Of a DNA stretch of 64,000 nucleotides, positions 1-25,994 are shown piece by piece. The notes under the pieces are model-generated. The model saw only the letters and a list, made by a program, of their open reading frames with translations, searched no databases and was not told where the DNA came from. The translations under genes and the position numbers were made by a program. How positions within the stretch are numbered: position 1 is the first letter of the stretch; every line of letters starts with the position of its first letter. This stretch comes from Eledone cirrhosa (lineage: Eukaryota): assembly GCA_964016885.1 (NCBI GenBank), contig OZ024741.1, positions 239,320,001 to 239,384,000 on the forward strand, read 5' to 3'.

Positions 1-310
1 CTTCAGGCAATATATTACATATTATCAATATAAATATAAAGGTGTCTAGAAATAAAGTTATGCTACCTAAATTTAAATATATTTCACCAGAAATATAACC
101 ATAATTAAATACCTCATTAGAGCAGAACATAAATGTTGAACATATCAATGTCTATAGAAAATGTAGAGCTGAGAATTTCTATCTTAAAATGTCTACTAAC
201 ATAATTTCTATATATATCATTTTATACTAAAATATGGCTAAATATATTTTGTAAGAGATCCATATCATTTGAATAAGTTGGAAATATAATATAAATATTC
301 ATAAACTTAC

Positions 311-720
311 ATTCATTGTGTAAAGTCCTTTGTTATAAACTGTGAGTTGGTCCCAATGTTCTGTTGTTAATGGTTGTCTGTGTCACTGCTGCTGTGGTGT
401 GACAATGGCTTCATGTTGATGGAATAGTGTTGGTAGTGAGTCAGTGGGAACCAGCAGTTCCTCTCAGTCTTTTCTGTGTGTGTGATGTTTACTGAGTGTG
501 AGTATATGTGTGTGTGTAAAAGAGAGTGAAGGATGGGTGATGCTTACTCCAGCCTCACTCAAATTGGAAAGAAGAGGGAGACAGAGACAAAGCACAATAT
601 CAGCTCCACTAATAGTCAGCCATAACCATCATCATCATAGTAATAAGTCTATATAACACCAACATGTCTGATGTAAAGAGACTGATATAGAAATAACCAA
701 TGTTTAAAGGAGATCTTAAA
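311..720 (-). promoter_or_regulatory. Conserved promoter + leader exon (copy 1) for the next Pcdh gene, which lies off the left edge
   Basis: One of 7 copies of a conserved block; minus-strand donor ATGAAT|GTAAGT (plus acttac 305-310); Inr-like TCAGT at 491-495; plus-strand motifs TGAGTCA, GATGCTTACTCCAGC, CAGCTCCACTAA, GTCTATATAA, CAACATGTCTGATGTA. Confidence 0.7.
367..414 (-). other. uORF1 in leader copy 1, MKPLSHHSSSDTDNH*
   Basis: CAAC-ATG start and TAA stop, 48 nt; recurs in the other leaders. Confidence 0.55.
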
Positions 721-1212
721 TTAACAAAATATTACTGATGTTGGTAAATATTTTACTAACTAATAATGTTAATATAATATAGACAATTATATTTAAGATC
801 TATCTGACCTAAATATACACCAAATCTGTAATGGAGGATGTATGAACAAATATTGAAGAAATTCTAGACTTCTCTTAGATGTTTATTTTAGTATTATTTT
901 TTAATATAATTTCTTACATATAATGTTTTAATAATAATGTTCTAAAAATCAAGACATATATTTTAAATATATTCTTTAGATATTTCAAATTTTAAACAAT
1001 CCATATTATTGAGAATATCTGTGTAAATATTAGTTCATATATATATATAAAAAACTTGTATAAAACTCCAGTGTGATCATAGAAGTTGTAATGCTGTGTG
1101 TATATTATTGAAATTGAGGGAGTGAGGAGAAATTGCACATATTTACTTTCTATGTGAAAGTTATATTTAAAATATAGCAGTAAGTGGTCAATATTTAGGA
1201 ACTGGCCAATGG

Positions 1213-1334
1213 TCAGTTAGTAATGACATCTGGTGTTGAAGGTAACTGTCTCTCTGGAGGTTTCACATATCTATCTTGGTATTGTTGTCTATCATTGTTC
1301 ACAACTGATGTATCATGTTGACTACCATAGATCC
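1213..1334 (-). CDS. Pcdh: Pcdh-A exon 4 (terminal): GIYGSQHDTSVVNNDRQQYQDRYVKPPERQLPSTPDVITN*
   Basis: TTTTCCAG acceptor, phase 1, 122 nt to TGA; paralogous exon behind every large exon. Confidence 0.88.
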
Positions 1335-1507
1335 CTGGAAAAGAGACAATGTTTTAGTGTAGCAATGTTAGAGACAATCACTTATCAGAAATACTGTAGT
1401 AATGACATACACACAGGACTAATTACACCAAACTACATAATTACAATTGGTACAATAATTGATAATGAAATAATATAATATTAAATGAGAGTAGTTTGTC
1501 AACATAC

Positions 1508-1661
1508 CTGTCATTGCTGGTATTTCTTCATACTGTCTACTTGACCTTTCACTCCAGCACTGTCCACTACTCTTATGACTGGTCAATGTATCAGTGGGAT
1601 AGTTAGAAGATGGTCTGTTGTCTCCATAAGATGTCACCTCTATAGGTTGACTATATTTCTG
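1508..1661 (-). CDS. Pcdh: Pcdh-A exon 3: QKYSQPIEVTSYGDNRPSSNYPTDTLTSHKSSGQCWSERSSRQYEEIPAMT
   Basis: TTTTACAG|CAG acceptor, G|GTATGT donor, 154 nt (phase 0 to phase 1); conserved in all six genes. Confidence 0.9.
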
Positions 1662-2746
1662 CTGTAAAATATAAGTTACCAGAATGTAAAGATAGCAATT
1701 ATCAATGACAGTGTTATATCTGGTATTGAATAAGTTACTACAGTTTAGTTCACTGAATATAATACCTGTGTAGGAATATATATACAGTGGGATGCCAAGT
1801 GCTGTGACACATTCTATGCTGCTAATCTTGTCACTTTGGTAACAAACACAGACATTGCTGCCAAACACACTGAGAAGCTTGACTGATCACATCTTTTTCA
1901 AGATGGCCTAGACATCCTTGATCTCTGAACTGGTGTTTTCATTCACAAAATATGGAGGTATGTATCCTGTCTGACAAAGGAAACCTGTGAGAGGAAATTG
2001 TCGATGCAGTGTGTGTTGCTTATTGTTGCAATAATTTTGCCATTTAGGGCATAACTGTGATATACTGCCTAGAATTAGGTGAAGAGTCAGACACTACATC
2101 TACCTTCCTCTTACAAAAATTATATAATTTAACTGAAATTTATTGAATAAAAATATTATTGTCATAGATATTAAATATTTTTATTACAGTTAGATAAAGC
2201 ATTCAACACATATGTGTAAATACTTATTTAACATAAAACATTGATGTAAACACAAATTTCATGCTGCACAGACAATTTAAAAAGATACGATCAGAGAATT
2301 TTCAAAGTGGATCTTTTTTTTATGTAGTAGAAACATTATCAATAAATTATTAGAAATTTCAAAATATTCAAATATTTCAAGATTTACAAGGCTATAATTG
2401 ATAGGGGTGCATATCATCAGTTATATAAACCCTCAGTCCTAATTGGTGTTAATTCTATCAATGTTGGGAGGATAAATTGGATTCTGGTGAGAGTTGAACT
2501 CTATACATAAAGAGATGTACCCACAGGTAGCAAGACATTTTGCCCAATACCCCACACACTGTTAAACTAGTCTCCAGTGTTGATTTATTTTTAGTATCTT
2601 GAAGATAAATTGTACACAAAATATAAGACACACAATTCTGTGTGTAAATTTTACTAGATTTACTTAACTAACAATAATATGTACAGAAACAAAACAATTT
2701 AAAGATAAAGATGAGTTACAAAATAGTTACGTAAAATAACACTTAC

Positions 2747-5120
2747 TCTGGTTGATTTCTGAAGAGATCTGTTCATTGTTGATGTCTTCCAGTCTTCAGG
2801 AGAGTAATGACTTCTAGACTGACTATATCTGTCTATCTCTCCTCGATTACCTGACATCACAGATACACTGTTGTTACCTTGATAGATCAACTGTCTCATC
2901 TCATTACGACATTGGTATGCCTGTTTCTCTTCTATTGTTCTAGCTGAGTTATTTCTCACATTGTTACATCTCACAATACACAATGTTATAGAAACTACAA
3001 TAGCTATAGATACTATCACAGCTGCTACTACAATGATAATCAACAATGTTGCATCTATTGTGTTATCAGTTGGTACATGGACAGCTGTGAACATTGGTGA
3101 TGTCTTGTTACTAACAGTCAGTGTTAAAGAGACACTAGTTGTTGCTGACAGAACTGGAGTACCACTGTCTTTCACAACAAACTCCAGTTGATATAATCCA
3201 GCATCATTTTGGTAAACTGTGCGAGAGTAAGATAAGACACCAGTGAATGAGTCCAGTTTAAATAATTGTCTCTCATTACCTGAAAGGATTTCATACCTGA
3301 GAAAAGCATTCATGTGACTGTCTATATCAGAGGCTTTCAGAAGTGTGATGTCATTCTTACTTTGTGGATGATAGTGGACATCAAGAGTGAAAGGGTCAAC
3401 ACTAGGAAATGTAAAATATGGAGCATTATCATTTTTATCTAATACTTCCACTTCAACATTTACTGTGTTATTTAGAGATGGTGTTCCATTGTCTTTGACT
3501 AAAACCTCAAAATCATAGAAATCTCTGTGTTCTCTGTCTAAAGACTGGTTTGTTGAAATAAAGCCAGAGTTGATAATCTGGAATGGTAGATGATATTGGT
3601 GTTTATTTCTCAGATAGTAACTTAATTCACCTCCCTTACCAACATCTGGGTCTGTAGCATTGATAAAACCAATAGGGAAATTAGCTTTGTCATTCTCATA
3701 GGTAAGGAACTTGAATGTATCTTTGGTAAAGTGTGGTTTTACATCATTCACATCTAACACTTGTATTGAGAGATCTTTATCAGTTTTGAGAGGAGGTAAT
3801 CCTTTATCTTGACAGGAGACAGTAAAGTGATAATGTTCCTGTGTCTCTCTGTCTACTGCTTTCTTTAGAACTATTTTATATTCCTTAGATCCCATTGACT
3901 GTAGTTTGAATGTATCATGTTTAATATCACAGCTGACCTCTCCATTGTGTCCAACATCATTGTCAGTGACCATCACATAAGCAATGAAACTACCAACTTT
4001 GATATCTTCCAGAATGGTAGCTGTGTTGTGAATCTCTGTAGAAATATAGTTGACATCAATATTTGGAGGATTGTTCTGTTGGTTGATAACATTTACCATA
4101 ACAGTTGCTATGGAACTGAGAGGTGGGTTGCCTCCATCTCTGGCCTCTATATACAATTTAAAGAATTTCTTCTTTTCTAAAGCAGAATGTTTGGCTAAGA
4201 ATATTTCTCCAGTTTTCTGATCAACCTTGAAATAATTTATTGATTCTTTAGAGGTTAATGAACTGATAAAATAAGAAGTGTTACCATTTTCTCCAATATC
4301 AGTGTCTTTTGCCAACATGACAATAATTGGTATATTTCTTTTGTGGTTATTTTGTATGGAGATATTGTATGTCTTCTCAGAAAATATTGGTCTGTTATCA
4401 TTCTCATCTTTGACAGTAATGTGTACAGTTAAGACACCTTGTTTGGGTGGACTTCCTCCATCTTTAGCTATCACTTCTATGTCATAACTATCTTTTATCT
4501 CTCTATCTAACTTTCCATCTAACACAATTTCTAATGAGAGCAACCTATCTGCTATCTGAAATGTAGACAAAGAAAACTGATTGCTACTACCTTTCAATTC
4601 ATAATTCACTAGTCTGTTTTGTAAACCAACATCATCATCAATTGCATTGGGTATTGATCGTTTTGTCCCCTTGCCCTCAGTTTCATAAAAATCTAAATTA
4701 ATTTCTTCAACAGGAAACTCAGGTGTATGGTCATTGATGTCTTCTATCATTACCTTAATCTTTAATATCTTTATAAATTTCTCTGCTCTATGAACTGCTA
4801 CCTTAATTGTGTGAGAACATTCTTTCTCAAAACTACACAGAGACTCAGCATCCAGTGTTTGTGTAGTATATATCTTTCCATTACTGGTCACATTAAATAG
4901 CTGTGTCCCCTTCTGTTGTAACTGACTAAATGATAATAATGCAATGTCCTGTAACTGTGAATCAGCAGTAATATCTCCTATATTGATAATTCGATGGTTT
5001 TCTTCTTCCACATGATAAACAATGTCTTCTTTAGAGAGTGAATAGTGAAGTAGAGACAGTAATATCCATATCTGTATTAAAACCATCTTTGTTAGTGGAG
5101 TTAGTTGTGAGTTAAGCAAC
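2747..5120 (-). CDS. Pcdh: Pcdh-A exon 2: signal peptide, 6 cadherin repeats, TM, proximal cytoplasmic domain (likely Met at 5086)
   Basis: 812-aa ORF with DINDH/DENDN/LDRE/DxD motifs, EC1 C-X5-C (LCSFEKEC) and hydrophobic TM; acceptor TTTCCAG at 5121-5127, phase-0 donor AGA|GTAAGT at 2741-2746. Confidence 0.95.
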
Positions 5121-6420
5121 CTGGAAATAAGAAACATAACTTTAATTTACTTGGTAGAATCCAATAATAAATAAATAGTATTCAATTAACTAAATTAAAC
5201 ATATTAAAAAATATATTTCATATATTTGTTACTGCTTTATTCTCATTAATCACCATAACATTCAATATTCTACACAGAAAAAATCATTTAAAGAAACATC
5301 ATTTAATTCCTTCTTTTTGTAAATATTTATTTAGAAATCTCAAGCTTCTCATTTTTATATTTTTGCTGTTAATTAACCCTTAATATATACATTATACATG
5401 ATTTCACATGGAATATGAATAATCAAATTTTCCTTCTTTTCTGCGAGTATTTTGTAATTTGTCGATATTCATTGTAAGATCCTGATTAGAAGATAGCAGT
5501 GAGTGATGGCAATATTAGCAGAGGGACTTCATACATGACACTATGATAACCTATGACACTTGAAAGAATTAAAAACTGTAACACTTGGCACTTTCAATAT
5601 CGTTCAATGTCAGATATAGAATATTACACTGATTTAATTTAGATCTGGGTATATATTACCTGCAAGATACTGACAATAATTGTTATTATACAGACACCGA
5701 ACATTTAGGACTGCATATTTTATTATGTGGAACAGATACAATGTATCAGTGAGTTTTAAGAGATGACCAACAGGGTTAGCATTAGAAACGGTATATAGCC
5801 ATGACCCACAATCTAATAAGACCTGCCCAAGCCATAACAGTAAGGAGAAACAGACATTAGAAACAACACTTATACTAATATGACATAATTAAACTTATTT
5901 ACAGATCTCTTTAGGTCTTATCTAGAAAACATTGTCTATAATTGTTATTTACTCAAAAATTGCATCTTGGCTTACATCATCTTATTTTAAGAGTTACTCT
6001 TTGAAATAAGAGGATGGAGTTTGAGAGGGATTTGACTGCTATTTGAGTAAATCAACTGACCACATAATGGCTCAGATGACACACTGTCACCAGAGTTACT
6101 TTCCCTTAATGTCTAACATCTTAGATAAAACATGATTATATAGTGTATATTGTATGTTTTCTCTCTATATTAATTATGTTTACAGCACACATTTTTCTCA
6201 AAAGTATGAAGGGGAAAACCAATACATGACTTATCTATTGCACCTAATAAAACCTCAATTCAAAATATATTATACACTATAAATGTTCCATGTAAAATGG
6301 AGGTGCAACTGATCTGTCAGTGAGAATTAAACACATGTGTATATGGTATATAACAAGAAAAAATGGTGTACACTTTACTATAGTAAATATATGTTTCATA
6401 TAAACATTATACTATTTAAA

Positions 6421-6560
6421 CAATAATAATAATAATAATGAAATTATTGTGTAAAGTGCTCAGGTGCACTACAACTCGTCAATATAGTACATAGAATAAT
6501 ACACAAATGCCAGGGAAGTACATGTTTGTATGTGTTAGCTGTAGTGTTGGCGGATGTTTC
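6421..6560 (-). mobile_element. Degenerate 3' end of a CR1-like LINE
   Basis: (AAT)n tail followed by ctcaggtgcactacaactc, shared with the better-preserved copy at 54342-54650. Confidence 0.5.
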
Positions 6561-7622
6561 TCAAACTAGTGTTTTTACACGATATTACACCTCTATCTGA
6601 AACACAGGAATCGGATAAAAGCGAAAATTGCTACAAAAAGCACAGTAAAAAGTGTTACTCAATAAAATTAACATATTGAAATCAGGAATAACAATTTTTT
6701 AAAATAGTGGAAATAAATGAATTTGAGTAAATATTTATCAAAATTCTTTAACTGTAAGATTACTAATTGTAGATTCAACATAGCACTTTTAACAAGTTCT
6801 AAATAAAAATAATAAAATAAGAAGATTACATTTATCACAATGTTTAACATTCTATTTCATATATAATCCACAATTTATTTAAATATATTTATTATATTGT
6901 AAATTAATACATTTTAAGAAATAAAAGCCTTAATATCTATCAATTTAAATATTATATTTTTTAAAGAAATGAATAAACAAAATTCCATATTAATTGATAT
7001 AGCCTCATTAAACAAGACTAATAAAGACAGTAGTTTTGTATAAAATGTAAAACAGATTTTAAAAATCCCTTAAAACTGAATAGTGACAAATTTAGAAATT
7101 CAATAATGCCACAATACTGTATTGATTATTTATGTTGACACTAAACCACCATCTTAACTATTCTCCTTGTTTCACATTAATATAATATATTAATATAACA
7201 CATGCATTGTTACATATAACTACAATAATGATATGGATGTTTTAAATGATATTTAACATCAAACACTTAATATAAAAATATTCACAACACTATAAAACCT
7301 CAAGAACGTCTTCAGGCAATATATTACACATTATCAATATAAATAATATATAAAAGTGTCTAGAAATAAAGTTATGCTACCTAAATTTAAATATATTTCA
7401 CCAGAAATATAACCATAATTACATAGCTCATTAGAGCAGAACATAAATGTTGAACATATCAATGTCTATAGAAAATATAGAACTGAGAATTTCTATCTTA
7501 AAATGTCTACTAACAATTTCTATGTATATCATTTTATACTAAAATATGGCTGAATATATTTTATAAGAGATCCATATAACTTAAATATGATGGAAATATA
7601 ATATAAATATTCATAAACTTAC

Positions 7623-8050
7623 ATTCATTGTGTAAAATCCTTTGTTATAAACTGTGAGTTGGTCCCAATGTTCTGTTGTTAATGGTTGTCTATGTCACTG
7701 CTGCTATGGTGTGACAATGGCTTCATGTTGATGGAATAGTGTTGGTAGTGAGTCAGTGGGAACCAGCAGTTCCTCTCAGTCTTTTCTGTGTATGTGTGAT
7801 GTTTACTGAGTATGGGCATATAAGTGTGTGTGTATGTAAAAGAGAGTAAAGGATGGGTGATGCTTACTCCAGCCTCACTCAAATTGGAAAGAAGAGGGAG
7901 ACAGAGACAAAGCACAATATCAGCTCCACTAATAGTCAGCCATAACCATCATCATCATAGTAATAAGTCCAACACCAACATGTCTGATGTAAAGAGACTG
8001 ACAGAAATAACCAATGTTTAAAGGAGATCTTAAATTAACAAAATATTACT
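7623..8050 (-). promoter_or_regulatory. Promoter + leader exon 1 of Pcdh-A (copy 2); uORF1 at 7679-7726 (MKPLSHHSSSDIDNH*)
   Basis: Donor ATGAAT|GTAAGT (7617-7622); Inr-like TCAGT 7805-7809; near-identical to copy 1 but lacks the TATAT of GTCTATATAA. Confidence 0.7.
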
Positions 8051-8527
8051 GATGTTGGTAAATATTTTACTAACTAATAATGTTAATATAATATAGACAA
8101 TTATATTTAAGATCTATCTGACCTAAATATACACCAAATCTGTAATGGAGGATGTATGAACAAATATTGAAGAAATTCTAGACTCCTCTGTTTATTTTAG
8201 TATTATTTTTTAATATAATTTCTTACATATAATGTTTTAATAATAATGTTCTAAAAATCAAGATATGTATTTTAAATATATTCTATGTTAATGCTATAGA
8301 AATTTAAAATTTAAAAAAAAATTCACATTATTGAGAATATCTGTGTAAAAATTAGTTCATAAAAAAAACTTGTATAAAAATCCAGTGTGATTATAGAAGT
8401 TGTAATGTGTGTATATTATTGAAATTGGAGAAGGGGAAAGTAAATGTTGTATATATTGTATTTTACATGTGAAAGTTATATTTAGAATATAGCAGTAAGT
8501 GGTCAATATTTAGTAACTGACCAATGG

Positions 8528-8649
8528 TCAGTTAGTAATGACATCTGGTGTTGAAGGTAACTGTCTCTCTGGAGGTTTCACATATCTATCTTGATATTGT
8601 TGTCTATCACTGTTCACAACTGATGTATCATGTTGACTACCATAGATCC
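8528..8649 (-). CDS. Pcdh: Pcdh-B exon 4 (terminal), ends ...RYVKPPERQLPSTPDVITN*
   Basis: 122 nt, CAG acceptor, TGA stop; near-identical to Pcdh-A exon 4. Confidence 0.88.
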
Positions 8650-8824
8650 CTGGAAAAGAGACAATATTTTAGTGTAGCAATGTTAGAGACAATCACTGTT
8701 ATCAGAAATACTGTAGTAATGACATACACACAGGACTAATTACACAACACTACATAATTACAATTGGTACAATAATTAATAATGAAATAGTGTAATACTA
8801 AATGAGAATAGTTAGTCAACATAC

Positions 8825-8978
8825 CTGTCGTTGCTGGTATTTCTTCATACTGTCTACTTGACCTCTCACTCCAGCACTGTCCACTGCTCTTATGACTGGT
8901 CAATGTATCAGTGGGATAGTTAGAAGATGGTTTGTTGTCTCCATAAGATGTCACCTCTATAGGTTGACTATATTTCTG
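8825..8978 (-). CDS. Pcdh: Pcdh-B exon 3 (cytoplasmic, YEEI exon)
   Basis: 154 nt, CAGCAG acceptor, GTATGT donor. Confidence 0.9.
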
Positions 8979-9954
8979 CTGTAAAATATAAGTTACCAGA
9001 ATGTAAAGATATCAATTATCAATGACAGTGTTATATCTGATATTGAATAGGTTACTACAGTTTAGTTCACTGAATATAATACTTCTGTAGGAATATATAT
9101 ACAGTGGGATGCCAAGTGCTGTGACACATTCTATGCTGCTAATCTTGTCACTTTGGTAACAAACAGAGACATTGCTGCCAAAAACACTGAGAAGAGGAAG
9201 ATAACCAAATACCAAAGCTTGACTGATCATATCTTTTCAAGATGGCCAAGACATTAGAAATCCTGTGTCTCTGAACTGGTGTTTTCCTCCACAAAATCAG
9301 GAGGTATGCAACCTGCCTGATGAAGGAAGCCTGTGAGAGGAAGTGGCCGATGCAGTGTGTGTTGCTTATTGTTCTCTGCAGCAAAAATTTTGCAATTTTG
9401 TTCACAGGGCACAGCTGAGATATACTGCCTAGATTTAGGTGTAGAGTCTGACATTAAATCCTCCATCCCCTTACTTTCATATTTTATTATGAAAATTATA
9501 TAATTCAGTTGAAATTTATTGAATAAAAATATTATTGTCGTAGATAATATTTAAAGCATTCCACACATATGTGTTAATACTTATTTAACATAAAATATTG
9601 ATTTACAAGACTATAATTTATAGGGGTGCATATCATCAGTTATATAAACACTCAGTTCTGATTGTTGTTAATACTACCAATATTTGGAGGATACATTGCA
9701 TTCTGGTGAGAGTTGAATTCTATACAAAATGAAATGTACCTACAAGTAGCAAGACATTTTGGCCGACACCCAACACACTGTGTTTAACTACAGTCATCTA
9801 TGTTGAATTATTTCGAGTATCTTGAGAATAAATTACACACAAAATTCTGTATGGAAAATTTATCAGGTTTACTTAACTAACTAATATTTACAGAAACCAA
9901 ACAATACCAAAATAAAGATGAGTTACGACATAGTTATGTAAAGTAAACACTTAC

Positions 9955-12319
9955 CCTTGTAGATTTCTGAAGAGATCTGTTCATTGTTGATGTCTTCCAG
10001 TCTTCAGGATTGTAATGGCTTCTAGACTGACTATATCTGTCTGATATCTCTCCTTGATTACGTGACATCACAGATACACTGTTGTTACCTTGATAGATCA
10101 ACTGTCTCATCTCATTATGACATTGGTATGCCTGTTTCTCTTCTGTTGTTCTAGCTGAGTTATTTCTCACATTGTTACATCTCACAATACACAATGTTAT
10201 AGAAACCACAATAGCTATAGATACTATCACAGCTGCTACTACAATGATAATCAACAATGTTGCATCTATTGTGTTATCAGTTGGTACATGGACAGCTGTG
10301 AACATTGGTGATGTCTTGTTACTAACAGTCAGTGTTAAAGAGACACTAGTTGTTGCTGACAGAACTGGAGTACCACTGTCTTTCACAACAAACTCCAGTT
10401 GATATGATCCAGCATCATTTTGGTAAACTGTGCGAGAGTAAGATAAGACACCAGTGAATGAGTCCAGTTTAAATAATTGTCTCTCATTACCTGAAAGGAT
10501 TTCATACCTGAGAAAAGCATTCATGTGACTGTCTATATCAGAGGCTTTCAGAAGTGTGATGTCATTCTTACTTTGTGGATGATAGTGGACATCAAGAGTG
10601 AAAGGGTCAACACTAGGAAATGTAAAATATGGAGCATTATCATTTTTATCTAATACTTCCACTTCAACATTCACTGTGTTATTTAGAGATGGTGTTCCAT
10701 TGTCTTTGACTAAAACCTCAAAATCATAGAAATCTCTGTGTTCTCTGTCTAAAGATTGGTTTGTTGAAATAAAGCCAGAGTTGATAATCTGGAATGGTAG
10801 ACGATATTGGTGTTTATTTCTCAGATAATAACTTAATTCACCTCCCTTACCAACATCTGGGTCTGTAGCATTGATAAAACCAATAGGGAAATTAGCTTTG
10901 TCATTCTCATAGGTAAGGAACTTGAATGTATCTTTGGTAAAGTGTGGTTTTACATCATTCACATCTAACACTTGTATTGAGAGATCTTTATCAGTTTTGA
11001 GAGGAGGTAATCCTTTATCTTGACAGGAGACAGTAAAGTGATAATGTTCCTGTGTCTCTCTGTCTACTGCTTTCTTTAGAACTATTTTATATTCTTTAGA
11101 TCCCATTGACTGTAGTTTGAATGTATCATGTTTGATATGACAGCTGACCTCTCCATTGTGTCCAACATCATTGTCAGTGACCATCACATAAGCAATGAAA
11201 CTACCAACTTTGATATCTTCCAGAATGGTAGCTGTGTTGTGATTCTCTGTAGAAATATAGTTGACATCAATATTTGGAGGATTGTTGTGTTGGTTGATAA
11301 CATTTACTGTAACAGTTGCTATGGAACTGAGAGGAGGGGTGCCCCCATCCCTAGCCTCTATAAATAATTCATAAACAACTCCTTGTAAATCTCTGTTTTC
11401 TTTTATAAAAATCTCTCCAGTGTCTGGTTTCAATTGAAAATGTTTACTATCCATGTCTGATGTCATTGGACTAAAATAATATAATATTCTGCTATTGTAC
11501 CCACTATCAGAATCCTCTGCTGATATTATAACAATTGGTGTGTTGCTTTTATGTGTTTTTGCCACAGATATATTATATTTCCTTTTTGAAAAGACGGGTC
11601 GATTATCATTTTCATCTTCGACTATAAGCTTTACATTCAACACAGTCTGCTTTGCAGGAACTCCACCATCTTCTGCAATAACTTCTACATTGTATATTTC
11701 TTTTACCTCTCTGTCTAACTTTTCTTGGAGAACAATATCAAGGTATGACACCCCATCAGCACTTTTGAAAACTTCCAGAGAAAAGGAGTGATTAGATTTT
11801 TGTAATTTATAATTAATTAATCTGTTTTTAAAACTGACATCTTTGTCAATGGCATTTGGAATGGATTTTTTCATTCCTTTGCCATCTCCTTCTCTAAAGT
11901 GTAAAGTTATTTCTTTCTCAGGAAACTCAGGTTGATGGTCATTGATGTCTTCTATTATTATTTTAACTTTTAAAATTCTTTCAAAAGTTTTCTCTTTATG
12001 AACAGCAACTTTAACAATTTTAGAACATTCCTTATTATATCTACACAGTGACTCAGCATCTATTGTTTGAACAGTGTATATTTTCCCTGTCTGAGTAACA
12101 TTAAATAATTCTCTCCCCTTCTGATGCAGTTGATTAAATGTAACCATTTTCAGATCGTCTGGTGAAAAGGAGTTCAAAAACTGTTTATTAGTGGCAATAG
12201 ATCCTATATATGTAACAGGACTGTTTTCTTCTTTCACCTGGTAAGTGAGGTTTAGACAGTAGTAACAATGAATTATCAATGATAAAAGCCAGAGAACTCT
12301 CAACATCTTTAACATTTCA
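9955..12319 (-). CDS. Pcdh: Pcdh-B exon 2 (EC1-6, TM; Met at 12315)
   Basis: 804-aa cadherin ORF; acceptor TTTTTTTACAG ending at 12320, donor AGG|GTAAGT. Confidence 0.95.
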
Positions 12320-13560
12320 CTGTAAAAAAAAGTAAAGCCACTATTCAATAAATTCTGTATAAAATTATATCTTCACTTAATGTCACAATACATTTCAAGT
12401 AATAACACCTTAGAATTAATGTATATACTTGTGAATAAGTTGTTCTGGTAGATAAATCACATTTCCATTTTACATACAACATTTACAATGTACCATATAT
12501 TTTGAGTTGAGGTCTTGTAGGGCAGTAGATAGGGTTTTTACACATCATGTTTTCATGGGAAATGGTTTGACTTATACACAAGTATATATATTATATCTCT
12601 CATCTACAAAACAATTCAATTATTGAACAAATGAAAAATGAAATAACAAAAGAGAAGACCAGAATAAAAGCCCTACAAACATGAATCAAAGACAAGGAGC
12701 CAATACAATAATTGACTTCATTAATACTGAAATAACATTAATTTCGAAACAGCCTCCTAATTTACAATGGGAGCACTAGTCTGTCCACCAGGGTCGCAGA
12801 GCAGCCCCCATTTGTTTATAATAGTGAGAGATGGGCAAAGCAAGAGAGACGGAGGCAGTGACAATGGGAATTTGATTCCATTATGTTCAGACCCAATATA
12901 TACATATCTATTTATTTACCACACCACAAATATATACACATATAACAAATATGATTAACCAACTCAGTAGTTGATTAAAATACAGGGTGAGTCATAAGTA
13001 ACCAGGTAGACCAACGTTTATATTCCAAATTATCATATTTACTAAAATTCTGGTCATAGAGTACAAAATCGTAAAAATACATCAAACAAAAATATAATTA
13101 ATAATTTCTAAGTGGAAGAATAGGAAACACTCAGACTGAACTGTAGCTTATGTAATGTATAATTTGGAAAGTATGACAGGTAAGTGTTAAAAGTGTTGGA
13201 TTAAGGACTCAAGGGTCATAATTTTGAACCAAATCCCAAATGTATTACAAGTTCAGTCAGCAATGTGAATGTGTTAGAGAGAAAGAGGCAAGAGAGAGAG
13301 AGACAGAGAAAGTAAGCATGTTGAGGGTCTATTTCTGAAAAGACATTAGATAATAAATATGTAGATATTTGTGAAGTGACTTACAGACAGAATCAATACA
13401 GAGAAATACAAGGAAGACATTTTTGTCATAGATTCTAGTAAAAACTATAAATGGCATGGAAATTTATTCCAAGTTAAATATTATTAAAAATCTATTGAAA
13501 AGACAGCTAATATAGAAATTACTGGATATACAATTTGGTTTTCTACAAATAGTTGTTTAA

Positions 13561-14413: not shown

Positions 14414-14900
14414 ATTCATTGTGTGTAAAAAATCCTTTGTTATAAACTGTGAGTTGGTCCCAATGTTCTGTTAATGGTTGTCTGTGTCACTGCTGCTATG
14501 GTGTGACAATGGCTTCATGTTGATGGAATAGTGTTGGTAGTGAGTCAGTGGGAACCAGCAGTTCCTTTCAGTCTTTTGTGTGTATGTGTGATGTTTACTG
14601 AGTGTGAGTGAGAGAGAGAGAAGGATGGGTGATGCTTACTCCAGCCTCACTCAGACAAGATGATGCTTTCCCCTCTCACAGAAGAGGAGTGGGAGAGAGA
14701 GGTAGGGAATGCTTACTCCAGCACAACTTAAGTTAGATGTTATGTTTCCCCTCAGAAAGAGAGAGTGGGAGAAGGGAGGGGATGTAAATACAATATATCA
14801 GCTCCACTAACAGTCAGCCATAATATGTCTATATAATACTAACATGTCTGATGTAGAGAGACTGACATAGAAATACTGAGAAGATAGAGGTTATATTAAC
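14414..14900 (-). promoter_or_regulatory. Promoter + leader exon 1 of Pcdh-B (copy 3); uORF1 at 14471-14518
   Basis: Donor ATGAAT|GTAAGT (14408-14413); Inr-like 14597-14601; the ATGCTTACTCCAGC...TTTCCCCTC module is duplicated (~14632 and ~14710). Confidence 0.7.
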
Positions 14901-15219: not shown

Positions 15220-15332
15220 TTAACTGACATCTGGTGTTGAAGGTAACTGTCTCTCTGGAGGTTTCACATATCTGTCTTGGTAATGGTCTCTCTCATTGTT
15301 GCTTGAGACATCAGGTGGGACACCATAGATTC
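15220..15332 (-). CDS. Pcdh: Pcdh-C exon 4: GIYGVPPDVSSNNERDHYQDRYVKPPERQLPSTPDVS*
   Basis: TTTCAG acceptor, phase 1, 113 nt to TAA. Confidence 0.88.
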
Positions 15333-15639
15333 CTGAAACGTATAGAAATACAAAGCTTAAGGAAGAATTAAAGTGATACTCAGCAAAATGTTTAAACACC
15401 TGCCCAACCTAAGCCAATGGATATTAAATGACGATGTTGATGGTAATATAATCATATCAGAATTAAGATAGACTCACGTAGACCAGTTGGCATGGGCCTA
15501 CAAAGCCTACAAATCTGAGGGGGTTGGGCTCCTCCTCTCTTCTGTTACTTGCAAATACATCATGTACACTACATGTATGTACCCATAACCATTACATTAT
15601 TTATCTCTGATTATATAAATACTTAATGAGCAGTTTGAA

Positions 15640-15980: not shown

Positions 15981-16037
15981 CCATATAATACACACAAATT
16001 AACAACAAACAGATAAAAATACACTAACAATAATAAT

Positions 16038-16220
16038 TGTTTCTACTTTTGGCACAAGGCCAGCAATTACCCAGTACATTACTGGTACTTTATTTTATCG
16101 ACCCCGTAAGGATGAAAGGCAAAGTTGACCTCGGCGGGATTTGAACTCAGAATAGAAAGGGCCGTAACTCTATGCGTCAAAGCATGACGTCCGACCCTCT
16201 GATACTGCCAATCCACCACC
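16038..16220 (-). mobile_element. tRNA-derived SINE (family 1), young copy
   Basis: Minus strand has A-box-like GGTGGATTGGCAG, B-box GAGTTCAAATCCC and central GCCTTTCATCCTTACGGGGTCGATAAAATAAAGTACCAG (resembles the Meta/MESC SINE domain, from memory); direct repeat TACACTAACAATAATAAT at 16020-16037 and 16225-16242. Confidence 0.8.
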
Positions 16221-16674
16221 CTTCTACACTAACAATAATAATGAAGGAGAATATTTAGTTTTCTATTACAATTCTAACCATATCTAGGAAACCTTTGAGG
16301 GTATATTAAAGTGGTACTATTTTATAGGAATATTAAATCATTCCCGGTACTTAATTGGTATTATATTTTATTGAATAGAGAAGGATGAAAAACATAGTTT
16401 ACCCTGACAAGATTTAAACTCAGAAAATATAGAACATAGAATAAACAAATGTCACAGTTATTTTTCCCAATGTTTCTGCCAATCCAGACAATGATGATAA
16501 TAATGGGGAAAAGGTATAATCAGTTATATCAACCTCAGTATATGACTGGTACTCTAATTTGTCAATCCATTTAACCTTTCAGGGTCCTCGGAATGATAAA
16601 TGGCAAAGCTAGCCTCAGAACATAAATAGCTGTTATGATAATGATGATAATAACTTGGGTAAATATTTTTTTAC

Positions 16675-16825
16675 CTGACATTGCTGGTATTTCTTCATAC
16701 TGTCTACTTGACCTTTCACTCCAGCACTGTCCACTACTCTTACGACTGGTCAATGTATCAGTGGGATAGTTAGAAGATGGTCTGTTGTCTCCATAAGATG
16801 TCACCTCTATAGGTTGACTGTATTT
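16675..16825 (-). CDS. Pcdh: Pcdh-C exon 3
   Basis: 151 nt; the upstream CAG of the NAGNAG is mutated to CTG so the second AG must be used; donor G|GTAAAA; frame preserved. Confidence 0.88.
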
Positions 16826-18129
16826 CTGCAGTAAAATATAAAATAAAACATTATATAAGTATTGGAAGGTGATTGTTCTAAAAGGTGTTTATACTGGTGC
16901 CACAAAAATAAAACTCCCAGTACATCCTGTAAAGTGGTTGGCATTAAGAAGAGCATCCAATCATAGAAAACTAAACCAAAATTGGAACATATGAGCAATT
17001 CACAACCATCTGACCTGTCTAACTTCAATGTGACAGCCTATCTAACCCATGCAAACATAGAAAATAAATGTTATATAGTGTTAATTTTGATGAATTGTGA
17101 ATTACCATGGATAGTTTGTGTCATCTACAATAGGAATTTTACATTATGTTTAAATTTTAGTGTTAGATGTTATTTACATCTAGGACAAATAATTATATCA
17201 TGTGACACCTTTCATCAAAAAATCTTAACTTTCTAAATGACCCTCATTTCTTCAGTGAGCCCTCAAATCCAAATGGCAACAAAGAGATACTGTCATGATA
17301 TACAGTGTGTCTTGGGCTTGGGCTCATTAGTCTTCATGTTCGCAAAGAGACAGAGAGAGAGAACAGAAGAATTGGCTCAAGTACTGGCCACGTACTTTAT
17401 CAATCCTGAAAGGATGACAGGCAGAGTTGATATTTGTAACATAACAAAATTTTCTTATTTAAAATTATGTTGAACAATTTTAATTTAAGTAGGAACCCTT
17501 TTAATTTGGTAGTTTTGTTTCACAGAAACAGGCAGTTTGGGGTGGGTTGGTACCAAAAGAGTTACCACCAAGCTGTAATATATAGAGAGTGAAGAAGACA
17601 ATAGGAAATTAGAGTAAACTAAAGTCATTAATTGCAGAAACAGTTTAAACTGGAATAAATTAAGAAAGAGGAAAAGTCTAACATTTCACTAATTAACAAC
17701 ACAGACTATTAATGGTTTCCTCAAATCCTACTGTCTGCTTCTTCAAGTGTTGATGACAGTCTTAATATATAAAAGTGAATGTATGTATATTCCAAGTGGT
17801 AGGCTAAAATATAGCTGAAATGCTACATTTTCTAATACAGTCTATTAACGTAATTAAGTTCAAATATTGCAGCCAGTTCACTGTAACGCAAAGAATTTGC
17901 CAAATTTAATTGTAAACAATAAGACATATAGATTCCAAATGAACATTCAGATCACATGACTGTTTCATATAATATTATTGTGAAATAAATATATAATTAC
18001 ACTTTCATTACTGTTACTTTTATAGATTTTAAAGATATAGGATTATGTGCATCATCTGAAAATTACTACCATTAATCTCAAATAATATTTAAGTTGTAAG
18101 AAAGTAATTATATAATTTTTAACATTTAC

Positions 18130-20534
18130 CTTTGTGGACTTTTGAAGAGATCTGTTCATTGTTGATGTCTTCCAGTCTTCAGGATAGTAATGACTTCTAG
18201 ACTGACTATATCTGTCTGATATCTCTCCTCGATTACCTGACATCACAGATACACTGTTGTTACCTTGATAGATCAACTGTCTCATCTCATTACGACATTG
18301 GTATGCCTGTTTCTCTTCTGTTGTTCTAGCTGAGTTATTTCTTACATTGTTACATCTCACAATACACAATGTTATAGAAACCACAATAGCTATAGATACT
18401 ATCACAGCTGCTACTACAATGATAATCAACAATGTTGCATCTATTGTGTTATCAGTTGGTACATGGACAGCTGTGAACATTGGTGATGTCTTGTTACTAA
18501 CAGTCAGTGTTAAAGAGAGACTAGTTGTTGCTGACAGAACTGGAGTACCACTGTCTTTCACAACAAACTCCAGTTGATATGATCCGGCATCATTTTGGTA
18601 AACTGTGCGAGAGTAAGATAAGACACCAGTGAATGAGTCCAGTTTAAATAATTGTCTCTCATTACCTGAAAGGATTTCATACCTGAGAAAAGCATTCATG
18701 TGACTGTCTATATCAGAGGCTTTCAGAAGTGTGATGTCATTCTTACTTTGTGGATGATAGTGAACATCAAGAGTGAAAGGGTCAACACTTGGAAATGTAA
18801 AATATGGAGCATTATCATTTTTATCTAATACTTCCACTTCAACATTCACTGTGTTATTTAGAGATGGTGTTCCATTGTCTTTGACTAAAACCTCAAAGTC
18901 ATAGAAATCTCTGTGTTCTCTGTCTAAAGATTGGTTTGTTGAAATAAAGCCAGAGTTGATAATCTGGAATGGTAGACGATATTGGTGTTTATTTCTCAGA
19001 TAATAACTTAATTCACCTCCCTTACCAACATCTGGGTCTGTAGCATTGATAAAACCAATAGGGAAATTAGCTTTGTCATTCTCATAGGTAAGGAACTTGA
19101 ATGTATCTTTGGTAAAGTGTGGTTTTACATCATTCACATCTAACACTTGTATTGAGAGATCTTTATCAGTTTTGAGAGGAGGTAATCCTTTATCTTGACA
19201 GGAGACAGTAAAGTGATAATGTTCCTGTGTCTCTCTGTCTACTGCTTTCTTTAGAACTATTTTATATTCCTTAGATCCCATTGACTGTAGTTTGAATGTA
19301 TCATGTTTGATATCACAGCTGACCTCTCCATTGTGTCCAACATCATTGTCAGTGACCATCACATAAGCAATGAAACTACCAACTTTGATATCTTCCAGAA
19401 TGGTAGCTGTGTTGTGATTTGGTGTAGAAATATAGTTGACATCAATATTTGGAGGATTGTTGTGTTGATTGATAACATTTACCATAACAGTTGCTATGGA
19501 ACTGAGAGGAGGACTACCTCCATCTCTAGCTTCAATATATAGTTTGAATGTTTCTATTTCATTCAAGTTTGTAAACTTAGCAAAAAATAACTCTCCAGAC
19601 ATTTTATCCAACTTAAAATATTGTCTGTTTTTTTCCAATGTCTTGGGACTGAAATAGTAAGAAATCTTTCCATTTTCACCAATATCCAAATCTTTAGCCG
19701 ATACAACAACAATAGCTTTGTTTTTGCCATGCATTTTCTTTATGGAAATATTGTACAGTTTTTCATGAAATATGGGTAAATTATCATTTGCATCTTGAAC
19801 TTGTATATTTACATTCAAGATACTTTCTTTGGATGGAGTCCCTCCATCCTTAGCAACAACCTCCAAACTATATTGATCCTTCACTTCTCTATTTAATTTA
19901 CTTTCTAGAACAATCTCTAGCCGAGATATTCCATCAGCTCTTTTAGAAACTAACAATGAAAATATTTTCCCATTCTTCTTTAAATGATAACTGATAACAC
20001 TATTTATAACTCCAACATCTTTGTCAATGGCATTTGGGATGGATTTTTTCATTCCTTTGCCATCTCCTTCTCCAAAGTGTAAAGTTATTTCCTTGTCTGG
20101 AAATTCAGGTTGATAGTCATTGATGTCTTCTATAACGACCTTAATTTTTAAAATTTTCAAGAATGTATTCTTTTCATGAACAGCAACTTTAACCTCCCGA
20201 AAACATTCCTTTTCAAAAGTACAAAGAACTTCAGCATCTAATGTTTGTATTGTATAAAGTTTGCCATTTTCAGACACATTAAATAGTTGTGTTCCTTTAA
20301 GTTTCAGTTGATTAAATGTAATATGACCTACGTCTCCAGGTTGAACTGTATCTTGAAATTGTGGATCAGTTGTAATATCCCCAACAAATGTATGTGGTCT
20401 TGTCTCTTCCTTCACCTTGTAAATTATGTTCAAGCCAAGACAGCAGTGGAAGAAGCTAATTAACAAAAATGAAGTCTGCAACATATTTTCTTTTGTTATT
20501 GGAAACATTGAATAAAATCAAATTTTAACAGATT
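18130..20534 (-). CDS. Pcdh: Pcdh-C exon 2 (EC1-6, TM; Met at 20508 or 20484)
   Basis: 818-aa cadherin ORF; poly-T..TTTCAG acceptor ending at 20535; donor AAG|GTAAAT. Confidence 0.95.
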
Positions 20535-20769
20535 CTGAAATATAAAAAAAAAATATATATTTAGAATTATTCATTTGTTATTATTCATTAGAGAAACTAA
20601 ATATTATAATTTTGTGAATTTATCAATTATTTCAATATATCTACAAGTGATATGTGCCAGATATACATTTTCTATATCAGTCAGTACTTTCAACAATAGT
20701 CTGAAGTGTTTTACTAAGAAAATATATTTTCCTTAAAAACTAGGTAAAATTGTTGTTGTTGTTGCGGTG

Positions 20770-21474
20770 GTAGTGGATTGGCAAAATTGTTCGTGTGTCA
20801 GATGAAATGTAATGTATTGCAAGTATTTCATTACAACCCTCTGTGTTCTGGTTTCAAATCCAGCCAAGGTCAATTTTGCCTTTCATTTTTTCAGGATAGA
20901 TGAAATAAAGTACCAGTCAAGTACTGGGATTGATTTAACCAACTTTACCCTTTCCTAAAATATTTGTTGGCGTTGTGCTTCAATTAGAAATCTATATTAT
21001 ATAAGTTCTGAATTCAAATCCCTCTGAGGTTAACTTTGCTTTTCATCCTTTGGGGAGTTGATAAAATATAGTACCAGTAAAGTACTGGGGTCAATATAAT
21101 CAATTTTCCCTTCCCCGAAAACTGCTGCCCTTGCGCTTATATTAGAATCCATTATTATAGGTGGATTGTCTGAGTTCAAATCCCGCCGAGGTTAAATTTG
21201 CCTTTCATCCTTATGGGGTCGATAAAATAAAGTACCAGTAATACACTGAGAAAATTGCTGGCCTTGTGCCAAAAGTAGAAACAATTATTATAGGTGGATT
21301 GGCAGAGGGTCAGTCGCCATGCTTTGACGCATAGAGTTACGGCCCTTGCCATTCTGAGTTCAAATCCCGCCGAGGTTAACTTTGCCTTTCATCCTTACGG
21401 GGTCGATAAAATAAAGTACCAGTAATGCACTGGGTAATTGCTGGCCTTGTGCCAAACGTAGAAACAATTATTAT
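20770..21474 (+). mobile_element. Head-to-tail array of 4 family-1 SINE copies
   Basis: Four repeats of TTCAAATCC..GAGGT..TTTGCCTTTCATCC..GATAAAATAAAGTACCAG separated by ATTATTATA. Confidence 0.8.
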
Positions 21475-24204
21475 AATATAGAATAAGAAATCATTATTAT
21501 CATGTATAATAACATGTACTTACTGATATTAACAATTATAATATAGAACAAGTACTTACTAATATCATAAAATCAACAATAATAATACACCATATGTGTC
21601 TTTGTACATTTATTTATAAATATGCAATCTTTAACTCTTTAAAATTTACATTCATAATAATTTACACACATTTGAACGTGCATGCTGAACATTTATGTAA
21701 TAAATTATTAAAATATCATTATCTTTAAGCACTCCCATATGCCAGTAATCAACATAAACTATAGGATTTCTCTTATGCAAACCGTCCATTTATCAAAACA
21801 CAAATTTCCTAGTTTGTATTGTATGATTTTTCATATATCTGGTAATCCTGGGATATATGGGCACACCAATCCTGGACTCCAAAAATATCTTTCACACTAC
21901 TGTCATCATTACTGATGGCATGGGTCCACTAGTAAGAATTATATTATAGAATAAGAACTGACAAATATCTTAGATAACAATTATTATAGAGAATAAAAAA
22001 TACTTACCAATATCTTAGAATAATAATTCCAAATTATATTTCTCACTTAGATTGAAAATTAATTCCATACAAAACAAAAGAGAATTTTATAATGGATTAG
22101 TAGAAATGTAGAGATTAAAATAAAATATCTTAGATTGTTCAACATGACTCAAAAATGCAAACCTGCACTAAATTAATATGTATTTGTCACAAAAAGATGA
22201 CAAACCCCAAATCCCTCAATGGCCTCACAGCAGCTACAAATCCTAACATGAAAATATATATTGAATTAAAAACATGTTTTTGTAAAACCTTTGTTGTTTG
22301 TTTGTTTATTTATATCCTAGCAGCTATCTTAGTTGGAAGCAACATATTCTCTCAAAAGGTTTGCTAACATATTGACACAATGATAAGAAAACAATAAGAG
22401 GCTGTTCTAGTTTGCTTGAAGCATTGTGTAAAGTGTAAAAGATAGTGTATTGTTTGAAGGCTATCACAATGTGAAGTGGATGGTAAATGCTAAAAATGAT
22501 GTTGGGATGTTATTTTTCAGCTTTTTAGATGCTCATAAGAGCATCCATTTTGGGATAAAATTCCTTCATCAAAAAAATCAATTAGTTTGGAGCTGTATAT
22601 TTTTGTCACTTTTAAGCTGCCATTTTTTGAAATTATATTTTTCAAAAAATATATTTCGGTTGAGGGCAGTTCTTTAACAGAGTCTTTAGAGTGTCAGACA
22701 AATGCATAGCAATATTTTTCTGGCTCTTTACGTTCTGAGTCCAAATTATGATGAGGTCAATTTTGCCTTTCATCCTTCTGGGATCGATAAAATAAAGTAT
22801 CAGTCAAATTGCTGGGCTTGTGCCAATGTCAGAAATCAATATTGTGGTATTCATTTTAACAGTTCAGCTCTATCTCTGAGATGTTATATACAGATGTAAC
22901 TGACAAATTAACTGTGATAAACTATAATAATAATCTGAAATATTACAGAAGAAATAATATACTTTACAATTGGAGTGATAAGATGAGTTGAATAATTAAT
23001 GTATGACATTGGATTAAAATACCTAACAATTAATATAATTATTCAATATTTTGAACAATGAAAATAAACTAAGAGTCAAATGTAGGTTGTTAAGAGTACT
23101 TCATTGTTTTATGATCATTTCAGAGGGCTGATTGATCATGGTAAATTGAATGATTGAACACCAGGTAGTGGTTATGTCACCACCTATTTTTAGTGCCAAT
23201 ATTTGAGATCAATCACTCCATCTTCCTCATTGGTATTAAAATTAATTTGATAAACTAAATATTCAGGCGGGGTGGGGGGGGGGGGGGGGGGGGGGGCAAT
23301 TATTTATTTTTCTTCTTTTTAGTAAATTGAAAATGTAATATATTTGTTAAACAGAAATATATTCCAACTATTTCAAAACATTTGTTCTTTTAAAAAATCT
23401 TATAATTTAAAAAATGCTGTTCAAAGTCTTTGTAGAGAAAAAATCAGAATAAATATTCAGTAGAAATTATTTGTTATAGGTTTTACAATATATATATAAG
23501 TGAGAGAGAGAGAGAGAATGTAAATACACAAACACATATATATATATATATACATTTGTATTTCAATAACCAAATCAATACCTCAATATTTATGTGATTA
23601 CAAGAATATGAAATAACATTAAACGTATTGAGAGGAGATACTATGAAGATACACTTCATCACTAATGATTATTTTTATAACATACTGCCATTTTATGTAA
23701 AAATACAATTGTAGCTATACCAAAGACCTTAAAAATGTATCACTCTTAGAAGAAGAAAAAAAGGTATCATATTAAAATATTTTAATAAATAAAACTATAT
23801 AATTATTTTACACTATTAAGTTGTCCAAAAATCTCACAAATCTCAAATATAAATAGGCGAGATTTAAAACAACATGCAATCCAAACCTCCCACAGAATCA
23901 ACCATGCCATGACAAATTGTATTAAATGTATGGAAATTTCTTTAATATTTGGAAATGCTGAAACATAATTTGTCTTGCAATTATAATTTAATCCAGTTGA
24001 AATAGAATTATTGAAATTATAAACTGAAAAATCTCATAATAATGTTTCCTTTTCACCATTCCTAAGAAAAATGGTTCGTTGTTCTGTACAATTTTTCAAA
24101 GGAAAAAAATTTAAAAAAAACAAAAACAAAAATGTAAACAGATTTCTCATTTATAATATAGTTATAAGAAATATGAAGAATGTAACATAAATGAGACTAC
24201 TTAC

Positions 24205-24575
24205 ATTCATTGTGTAAAAGCCTTTGTTATAAACTGTGAGTTGGTCCCAATGTTCTGTTGTTAATGGTTGTCTGTCACTGCTGCTATGGTGTGACAATGG
24301 CTTCATGTTGATGGAATAGTGTTGGTAGTGAGTCAGTGGGAACCAGCAGTTCCTCTCAGTCTTCTGTGTATGTGTGATGCTTACTGCAATGTGTCTGTGT
24401 AAGTGCTATTTCCAACCTCAGTCAGGCGAGGTAAGGGTGGGTGATGCTTACTTCAGCCCCAGTCAGACTAGATGTGTTTCCTCTCAGTGTAAAGTGAGAG
24501 AAGACAATAATAGCTCCACTAATATTTTTACTTGATAAGACTATATAACACCAATATGTCTGATGTAGAGAGAAT
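24205..24575 (-). promoter_or_regulatory. Promoter + leader exon 1 of Pcdh-C (copy 4); uORF1 frameshifted and extended (24205-24306)
   Basis: Donor ATGAAT|GTAAGT (24199-24204); 2-nt deletion in uORF1; Inr-like site altered. Confidence 0.68.
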
Positions 24576-25164
24576 TCAGTTGAGACAGTCCATATTAAGA
24601 GAGGCTATATCAACAGAATATAGTCTACAATATCAGATATATTGCTATAAACTACATTTTAGCTACTTTGACCTACTTTTGAAATAACTCCCAATTAATA
24701 CAGAAGATATAGAAAAACGATAAAACATTTTTATGAATATTTCATCGAGTTATTTTTAACTAATTTTTTTAATATTCTCCACATTAAAAAAGGAGGAATT
24801 ACAGAAATATTTTCAATACATCTTTATTTACAAAATTTATGATTATCCATGATTATAATCAAATGTCTTAATGAGAAAACATAAACAGATATTTTATTTT
24901 TTTTTAACATCATATATATAAAAACACTTTAAAATTACAAGGATATTACTTTAACAGAGAGAGAAATTATAATTAAGGACTGTAGGTAATTTAAATTTAT
25001 AATACAGAATATTCAGTGTCAGTGTGTTGACGAAGGAAGCTAAAGTCTTGAAGAAAAGTCTGAAGGTGTGTTTGTGTGGTAAGCAGTTTGTGTTTGGTGG
25101 TGGTGTTTTTGTTATCTGAAGACAGTCTTTAAATGTTTCAGTTTTTTTTTACATTGATCAAGTG

Positions 25165-25934: not shown

Positions 25935-25963
25935 TCTTTCTAGCTTTGGCAGGAGGCCAGTTA

Positions 25964-25994
<31 letters not shown>

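Follow-up and report, generated by a model that had tools for sequence, protein, structure and literature searches.

A repeated leader exon with a short upstream open reading frame in an octopod protocadherin array

A short exon is present in seven near-identical copies, one per gene unit, in the 64-kb window (the whole stretch of DNA that was analysed), and most of these copies carry a short open reading frame that begins at the same conserved ATG. This raises the question of why the copies are so alike, and in particular whether the likeness reflects selection on the encoded peptide, which an earlier note on this DNA had described as a conserved uORF micropeptide, inferring from it a translational control shared by the whole family.

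The leader exons and their host genes

The window consists of AT-rich animal DNA, in which six long open frames, of 806 to 873 codons, run on the minus strand. All six of these large exons matched the Pfam families Cadherin and Cadherin_2, the array is tandem and head-to-tail, and a hydrophobic (transmembrane) segment is visible in the large-exon translations. A protein search with residues 1 to 340 of one large exon as the query returned 651 proteins; the best-ranked named matches among those listed were Octopus and Argonauta protocadherins, and two Octopus sinensis proteins were 79 to 82% identical to the query. In the gene layout, a large exon with a terminal GT donor is followed by a 170-nt exon and then by the last coding exon. 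Judged by these features, the window represents an octopod protocadherin array and fits the coleoid clustered type. Coleoid clustered protocadherins are described as having originated by whole-gene duplication and as being homogenised through gene conversion (PMC9068888).

All of the large protocadherin coding exons lie on the minus strand. The one served by leader copy 2, a stop-to-stop open frame, spans positions 2699 to 5146 (predicted acceptor at 5120). Those downstream of copies 3, 4 and 5 span 9934 to 12372 (predicted acceptor 12319), 18052 to 20534 (predicted acceptor 20534) and 27414 to 29864 (predicted acceptor 29833). Downstream of copy 6 the large exon spans 45326 to 47947, with an ambiguous acceptor for which 47815 is the best candidate, and downstream of copy 7 it spans 56731 to 59156, with a candidate acceptor at 59156. 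Copies of exon 3, the tracts of which are homogenised, lie at 1505-1674, 8822-8991, 16672-16841, 25558-25725, 40846-41015 and 54768-54937. A search for last exons over 18052-27414 gave no match between exon 3 (25558-25725) of the gene at 27414-29864 and leader 4, and the last exons at 15225-15340 and 62282-62394 possibly end in a further donor in place of a stop. A short interspersed repeat of ∼200 nt was seen in many introns and spacers (16021-16244, 20770-21475, 26006-26813, 35862-36079, 40347-40534, 55667-55912 and 63847-64000), and a tandem array with 34 copies of a 25-nt unit occupies 32859-33719.

Six of the seven leader copies sit 2.1 to 8.7 kb ahead of a protocadherin coding exon; the coding exon of copy 1 would fall to the left of the window. 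Every copy terminates in AAT-GTAAGT, a splice donor, and the upstream ATGs of copies 1 to 7 lie at 414, 7726, 14518, 24306, 38572, 52910 and 61505 on the minus strand. Copy 1 of the leader exon occupies 311 to 493 (minus strand), from an Inr-like TCAGT to the GTAAGT donor at 310, and its 5' end may be further upstream. Its upstream open reading frame (uORF), at 367 to 414 on the minus strand, has 15 codons followed by TAA and translates to MKPLSHHSSSDTDNH-stop. The other copies, likewise on the minus strand, are found at 7623 to 7807 (copy 2, uORF 7726-7679, with a predicted splice to 5120), 14414 to 14599 (copy 3, uORF 14518-14471, with a duplicated block upstream), 24205 to 24385 (copy 4, frame shifted after the ATG at 24306), 38499 to 38653 (copy 5, uORF 38572-38525, the 3' part of the exon being shortened), 52849 to 52991 (copy 6, with a 9-codon uORF at 52910-52881, no second in-exon ATG and an insertion in its upstream module) and 61402 to 61584 (copy 7, uORF 61505-61458). 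The longest run that is invariant in all seven copies is 53 nt long (410 to 462, minus strand, in copy 1); it consists of 48 nt upstream of the ATG plus ATGAA and includes TGACTCA at 437-443. A second upstream ATG (ATGAAT; 311 to 316, minus strand, in copy 1), located directly at the donor, is present in exon 1 of six of the seven copies and yields ORFs of 2 to 15 codons across the predicted junctions.

The description of these copies in the earlier note was accurate. The CAAC-ATG-A start claimed for all leaders is present in seven of seven in the window sequence, and the 15-codon ORF claimed for five copies was found in exactly that number (copies 1, 2, 3, 5 and 7). The synonymous variants CAC/CAT (copy 1) and AAG/AAA (copy 7) are present, as is the T>I change in copy 2. 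Copy 6 shows the 18-nt in-frame deletion, with the product MKPLSTDNH, and in copy 4 a 2-nt deletion brings the ORF into frame with the ATGAAT at the donor. Using the predicted acceptor at 20534, we obtained the 46-aa spliced uORF that had been proposed for copy 4; a second candidate acceptor would extend it to 63 aa.

We compared the region from 4800 to 8050, which takes in copy 2 with its intron and the first part of the coding exon that follows, with contigs from four of 15 listed runs of related organisms, designated here X13 (DNA) and X1, X2 and X5 (only guessed to be RNA, and carrying no information on start sites or levels). The element is covered by contigs of X1, X2 and X5. The cross-species detail comes from the 40 of 265 differences and 12 of 54 indels that were listed. 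Joints of the leader to the coding exon were observed in X1 (5115-7628 and 4858-7623) and in X5 (4857-7629), the latter two running into cadherin sequence. At the X1 joint 7628/5115, 13 letters lie between the two parts, which we read as the exon end with three extra letters followed by the start of the coding exon, with five differing first coding-exon letters; the junction falls on the predicted donor and on the predicted acceptor of copy 2. Loose contig ends at the donor (X1, X2 and X5) continue into other exon sequences. Since the contigs join the element to protocadherin coding exons, in one case at the predicted splice sites, we conclude that it is a spliced leader exon, and the earlier designation as leader exons is thus borne out by splicing of the copy 2 type in relatives.

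Two further observations concern individual copies. An X1 loose end at 7628 has a full-length-type leader running into sequence that resembles the exon start at 29833, and the copy 5 leader, which lies ahead of the 29833 exon, may therefore have been shortened recently. At position 7692, the site of the T>I change in copy 2, the majority letter is present in the X13 (DNA run), X1 and X2 contigs; the copy 2 letter could represent either a private allele or an assembly variant.

The AUG at 7726 is covered by an X1 contig (7643-7805) and an X2 contig (7631-7780), well inside the exon, so that some translational dampening is plausible. The frame that enters from the 5' end of the exon is broken by 2-nt length differences between copies upstream of the AUG. 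No exon-derived peptide of convincing length was found in 120 cephalopod protocadherin matches, and a permissive tblastn search of these 120 matches against the leaders gave 7 short matches at chance level, 0 of them in the uORF frame. Given the broken 5' frame and the absence of exon-derived residues from the 120 annotated relatives, the leader is likely non-coding. An internal coding exon was considered separately and ruled out because the 2-nt length differences upstream of the AUG destroy the frame.

A conserved module lies upstream of the exon. In copy 1 it spans 494 to 690 (minus strand) and contains the TATA-like TATTATATAG, the TTAGTGGAGCTG and GAGGCTGGAGTAAGCA blocks and CT/CA tracts. 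The corresponding modules of copies 2 to 4 lie at approximately 7808-8003, 14600-14867 and 24386-24573, and those of copies 5 to 7 at approximately 38654-38849, 52992-53174 and 61585-61762. The module blocks are conserved in all seven units, with almost no CpG, and their make-up suggests that the module is likely a promoter or a distal 5' UTR. In copies without an insertion, TTAGT is found 28 to 30 nt downstream of the TATA-like box, and a second motif, TCAGT, lies nearer the exon. There may be two candidate starts, the Inr-like TCAGT ∼80 nt upstream of the AUG or the distal TTAGT behind the TATA-like box. In copies 1 and 2 an insertion of 18 nt separates the TATA-like box from TTAGT, and copy 3 has a duplicated block. 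In the module of copy 6, a ∼380-nt repeat that is also found at 31623-31945 is inserted at 53175-53557, immediately ahead of the TATA-like box, with what appears to be a duplicated GGTATT on either side. TGASTCA occurs 15 times in the window versus 14.1 expected, with 7 of these occurrences in leaders; the AP-1 label for this motif was assigned post hoc. A consensus scan with a 12-letter core that we take to represent CTCF gave, at 2 mismatches, 10 matches versus 14 expected and none in the module, and the CGCT core was absent from all six modules counted (copy 6 left out).

Likely gene conversion, probable nucleotide constraint and the upstream AUG

When the six coding exons were aligned by codon, differences at four-fold sites amounted to 55% in the 5' (N-terminal) half versus 3.2% in the 3' (C-terminal) half, a contrast of ∼17-fold with a sharp switch near the EC3/EC4 border (alignment columns 400 to 850). 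This contrast points to gene conversion, and the seven leader copies are thus not independent of one another. In vertebrate Pcdh clusters, low synonymous divergence is an accepted sign of conversion, and EC4-6 are reported to convert more than EC2-3 (PMC4978886). The mean pairwise identity of the leader exon (96.8%) equals that of the homogenised four-fold sites (96.8%), so that retention in seven of seven copies does not represent seven independent trials. After the donor, similarity falls to the level of shuffled controls for most intron-1 pairs (mean control 0.58), with the exception of copies 1 and 2, which belong to a recent 2.3-kb duplication. The case illustrates how a uORF can appear conserved as a result of gene conversion.

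Around copies 1 and 2, positions 1-2248 versus 7310-9605 and 2370-2727 versus 9593-9950 are 89% identical including introns, and cover the 3' ends of two neighbouring genes together with leaders 1 and 2. The region would be either a recent duplication or a long conversion tract, the 5' coding halves being old paralogs. The homogenised tracts stop at splice sites and the introns are unalignable, which raises the idea that conversion may be RNA-templated.

Divergence between species was significantly lower in the leader than in the adjacent coding exon in two of three runs. Assuming that the relatives' contigs are orthologous, the leader differed at 5 of 163 positions in X1 (3.1%) and at 5 of 150 in X2 (3.3%), versus 28 of 316 (8.9%) and 26 of 222 (11.7%) in the coding exon (P = 0.02 for X1 and 0.004 for X2); in X5 the difference was not significant (3 of 52 versus 30 of 290, P = 0.44). 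Ten of the 14 changed codons among the listed X1 differences were non-synonymous, and EC1 may evolve fast under diversifying selection, by which the contrast between leader and coding exon would be inflated. Since conversion alone should not slow divergence between species, the leader exon is probably under constraint at the nucleotide level. What survives is a 0.4-kb promoter-plus-leader cassette, which appears more conserved than the adjacent coding exon in two of three runs. At each of positions 7675, 7747 and 7772 (copy 2), the main leader contig of one related organism differs, with no such difference listed for the others, a pattern that gives a weak hint of species-level concerted evolution.

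We consider it fairly probable that we are dealing with a first exon, spliced and likely non-coding, whose copies are alike through conversion combined with nucleotide constraint, and that its AUG acts as a generic dampener with a product that is likely not selected. This explanation would build on an exon present in the sequence in seven copies, each with a GTAAGT donor and six of them ahead of protocadherin coding exons, to which it is seen joined in the relatives' contigs. Conversion, as suggested by the four-fold sites, would homogenise tracts of the protocadherin genes, and the cross-species divergence points to constraint on the nucleotide sequence with its centre in the 53 nt that end at the AUG; most simply, this would be a promoter-proximal protein-binding or RNA element. 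Dampening by leaky scanning and reinitiation would be predicted from the scanning model. A share of the ribosomes would initiate at the upstream AUG and terminate 15 codons later, and the signal-peptide AUG would be reached by reinitiation or leakage; the predicted outcome is an output lowered much alike in all paralogs.

Only 4.1% of the 1437 minus-strand ATGs fall into the start-context class of the upstream AUG, a context that we take to agree with the fly consensus. Inside the uORF of copy 1, beginning 11 nt into it, lies the inverted repeat TGTCAC-N12-GTGACA (381 to 404; -6.2 kcal/mol). The stem reported there is indeed present in six of seven copies, but it is weak and lost in copy 6; the hairpin reaches z scores of -0.9 to -1.3, and a 6-bp inverted repeat was found in 25% of 1000 shuffles. 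No unusually stable fold was seen (z of 0.69 and 0.29), and Rfam covariance models gave 0 matches over positions 1-9000 at E values up to 1.

A divergent X1 contig of 370 nt has only 45 nt in common with the window (7742-7698, or -16 to +29 around the AUG), with 5 differences, and it diverges from the window on both sides of this core. Its 45 nt are the best hint that the start region may be an old core. The 5' loose end of this contig carries TGACGT roughly where the window carries TGACTCA, and its 3' loose end contains seven letters complementary to uORF positions +7 to +13, a possible alternative hairpin; either may be due to chance.

It is possible, if rather unlikely, that selection acts on the upstream AUG as such, together with its context and the hairpin 11 nt downstream, making it a family-wide translational control cassette, with initiation required and the peptide sequence free. 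Such selection would account for the presence of the AUG and its 8-nt context in seven of seven copies, where they close the invariant block on its 3' side, for the rarity of the context class and for the divergent X1 contig having kept nothing but the stretch from -16 to +29. In uORFs generally, constraint on the start codon is common even though the codons that follow evolve neutrally (PMC7889888). However, the invariant block extends 48 nt upstream, far past the start context, the divergent contig with its 5 differences may have lost its AUG, and the weak hairpin is deleted in copy 6. In neutral simulations (star tree, calibrated on four-fold sites or on the uORF, 4000 runs), moreover, the 8-nt context was retained in all seven copies in 26 to 40% of the runs.

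A likeness due solely to conversion or to recent duplication of the copies, free of any special constraint and with a uORF of no appreciable effect, seems improbable to us. The exon is no more alike than the four-fold sites of the converted tracts (96.8%), and composition alone predicts uORFs of such size: a closed uORF of at least 15 codons was found in 49% of 5000 dinucleotide shuffles of the leader exon, and an ATG in (A/C)AA(A/C) context in 15% of the exon shuffles. The exon's repetition exceeds chance; the ORF inside the exon does not. Against conversion as the sole cause, however, homogenisation ends at the donor, the introns being at chance level except in copies 1 and 2, and in two of three runs the leader has diverged roughly one third as much as the coding exon next to it.

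The predicted product of the uORF

Pairwise identity in the uORF was 98.3%, versus 99.5% in the 53 nt upstream and, in five copies, 98.6% downstream, which does not support the description as a conserved micropeptide. The 48 nt of the uORF have acquired 3 substitutions and 2 internal deletions, whereas the preceding 53 non-coding nt have 1 substitution and no gap. Five events versus one correspond to P = 0.088 under equal rates, in the direction opposite to peptide selection. The uORF was thus not better conserved than its non-coding flanks, and its frame and length were not kept either, copy 4 being frameshifted and copy 6 lacking 6 of the 15 residues. Microhomology was considered as the reason why the copy 6 deletion is in frame and was rejected, since the spacing of the two CACA repeats (19 nt) does not equal the 18 nt that were deleted.

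It is therefore very unlikely that the uORF encodes a functional peptide selected for its sequence, whether a micropeptide or one that stalls ribosomes. Two of the three substitutions are synonymous, no nonsense change has occurred in the uORF, one of the 2 deletions is in frame, and the main X1 and X2 contigs have no gap in the uORF; this pattern is nevertheless expected by chance. The synonymous share gave P = 0.07 (uniform mutation) to 0.29 (transitions only), with little power from 3 substitutions, all of which are transitions, and at least one of two deletions is in frame with P = 0.56. The neutral chance of at least five of seven uORFs remaining intact was 0.60 to 0.66 in simulation. If the divergent X1 contig has kept the AUG, its peptide differs after residue 10, which counts against a fixed peptide. 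The uORF frame of copy 4 matched neither longer proteins nor proteins of similar length, in a search that is weak for so short a query, given how seldom protein collections include 15-codon ORFs.

We also found no evidence for the proposal that the uORF is tuned per paralog, since the neutral model reproduces the same pattern in 20 to 31% of 4000 simulations (the 8-nt start context in all seven copies together with a 15-codon ORF in at least five occurred in 20% and 31% of runs under the two calibrations). Genome-wide, uORF codons are reported to evolve neutrally, with less than 1% encoding conserved peptides, and start codons to be constrained (PMC7889888). The 15-residue product is thus likely not selected: the earlier observation was accurate, but a selected micropeptide is not supported.

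A last reading assigns the element to the preceding protocadherin gene, as a downstream exon or a piece of the 3' UTR, or takes it for a non-coding RNA gene. This reading could draw on the element's position only 0.7 to 0.9 kb after the preceding gene's last coding exon in several units, but it is already largely refuted and has next to no likelihood left, because a donor ends seven of seven copies, the element is joined to coding-exon starts in relatives, AATAAA or ATTAAA lies between the preceding stop and the module in all six units examined, no Rfam match was found in 1-9000 and the folding is not unusual (z of 0.69 and 0.29).

Comparison with known systems

For the question of how cephalopod neurons select among their more than 100 protocadherins and set their dose, a cassette common to every gene of a sub-array provides a concrete handle for promoter and translation assays; PMC9068888 attributes the diversity of these proteins to whole-gene duplication. 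We found no description of an octopod protocadherin leader or uORF in the literature, which does not by itself establish its absence from print, and no mention of a leader or a conserved 5' motif was found in the portion of PMC6339937 that was examined. The shared leader cassette is real and modestly interesting. The micropeptide as such has little importance on present evidence.

Conserved-peptide uORFs and micropeptides form one class for comparison. As in that class, a short ORF with an identical peptide is present here in most copies. In contrast to it, no clear synonymous excess is seen (P = 0.07 to 0.29), the frame is lost in one of seven copies and six residues in another, and the flank is better conserved than the uORF.

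The ORF starts with an AUG upstream of the main start, and in the relatives (guessed RNA) it lies within the mature leader; we regard it as a putative canonical uORF. It shares with canonical animal regulatory uORFs an AUG-started short ORF in a spliced leader with a purine at -3, as well as a start codon that is kept while the codons drift and take indels (PMC7889888). It differs from them in that members of a gene family carry repeats of a single uORF, which makes the apparent conservation one among non-independent paralogs.

The array resembles the coleoid clustered protocadherins in its head-to-tail multi-exon genes, which run in one direction and have their own downstream exons (PMC9068888). 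The shared promoter-plus-leader cassette seen in the window is, however, absent from the description in the examined part of PMC9068888, and the window additionally reveals which tracts are homogenised. The domain-biased conversion of vertebrates offers a further parallel, in that N-terminal ectodomains diverge and C-terminal ones are homogenised at synonymous sites (PMC4978886). The mollusc cluster is nevertheless independent, and its homogenisation seems to extend to the leader exon and exon 3.

The conserved sequence element (CSE) of vertebrate clustered Pcdh genes is a CTCF site with a CGCT box (PMC7811963). Like the octopod element, it is a conserved non-coding element in a similar position ahead of each tandem gene, a comparison that concerns only how such elements work (PMC7811963). 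Unlike it, the octopod element lacks CGCT in all six modules counted and has no match to the CTCF core used in our scan; it is also ∼0.4 kb long and partly transcribed, with an intron between the element and the coding exon. The cassette is not a CSE, although it may work as a shared control element. As a tentative and rather doubtful extension of this idea, selection could have kept the cassette as a control element for the whole family, convergent with the CSE but lacking its CGCT or CTCF core. A shared promoter and a conserved upstream AUG would then cap how much protein is made of each isoform, and more distant transcripts would share the core from -16 to +29.
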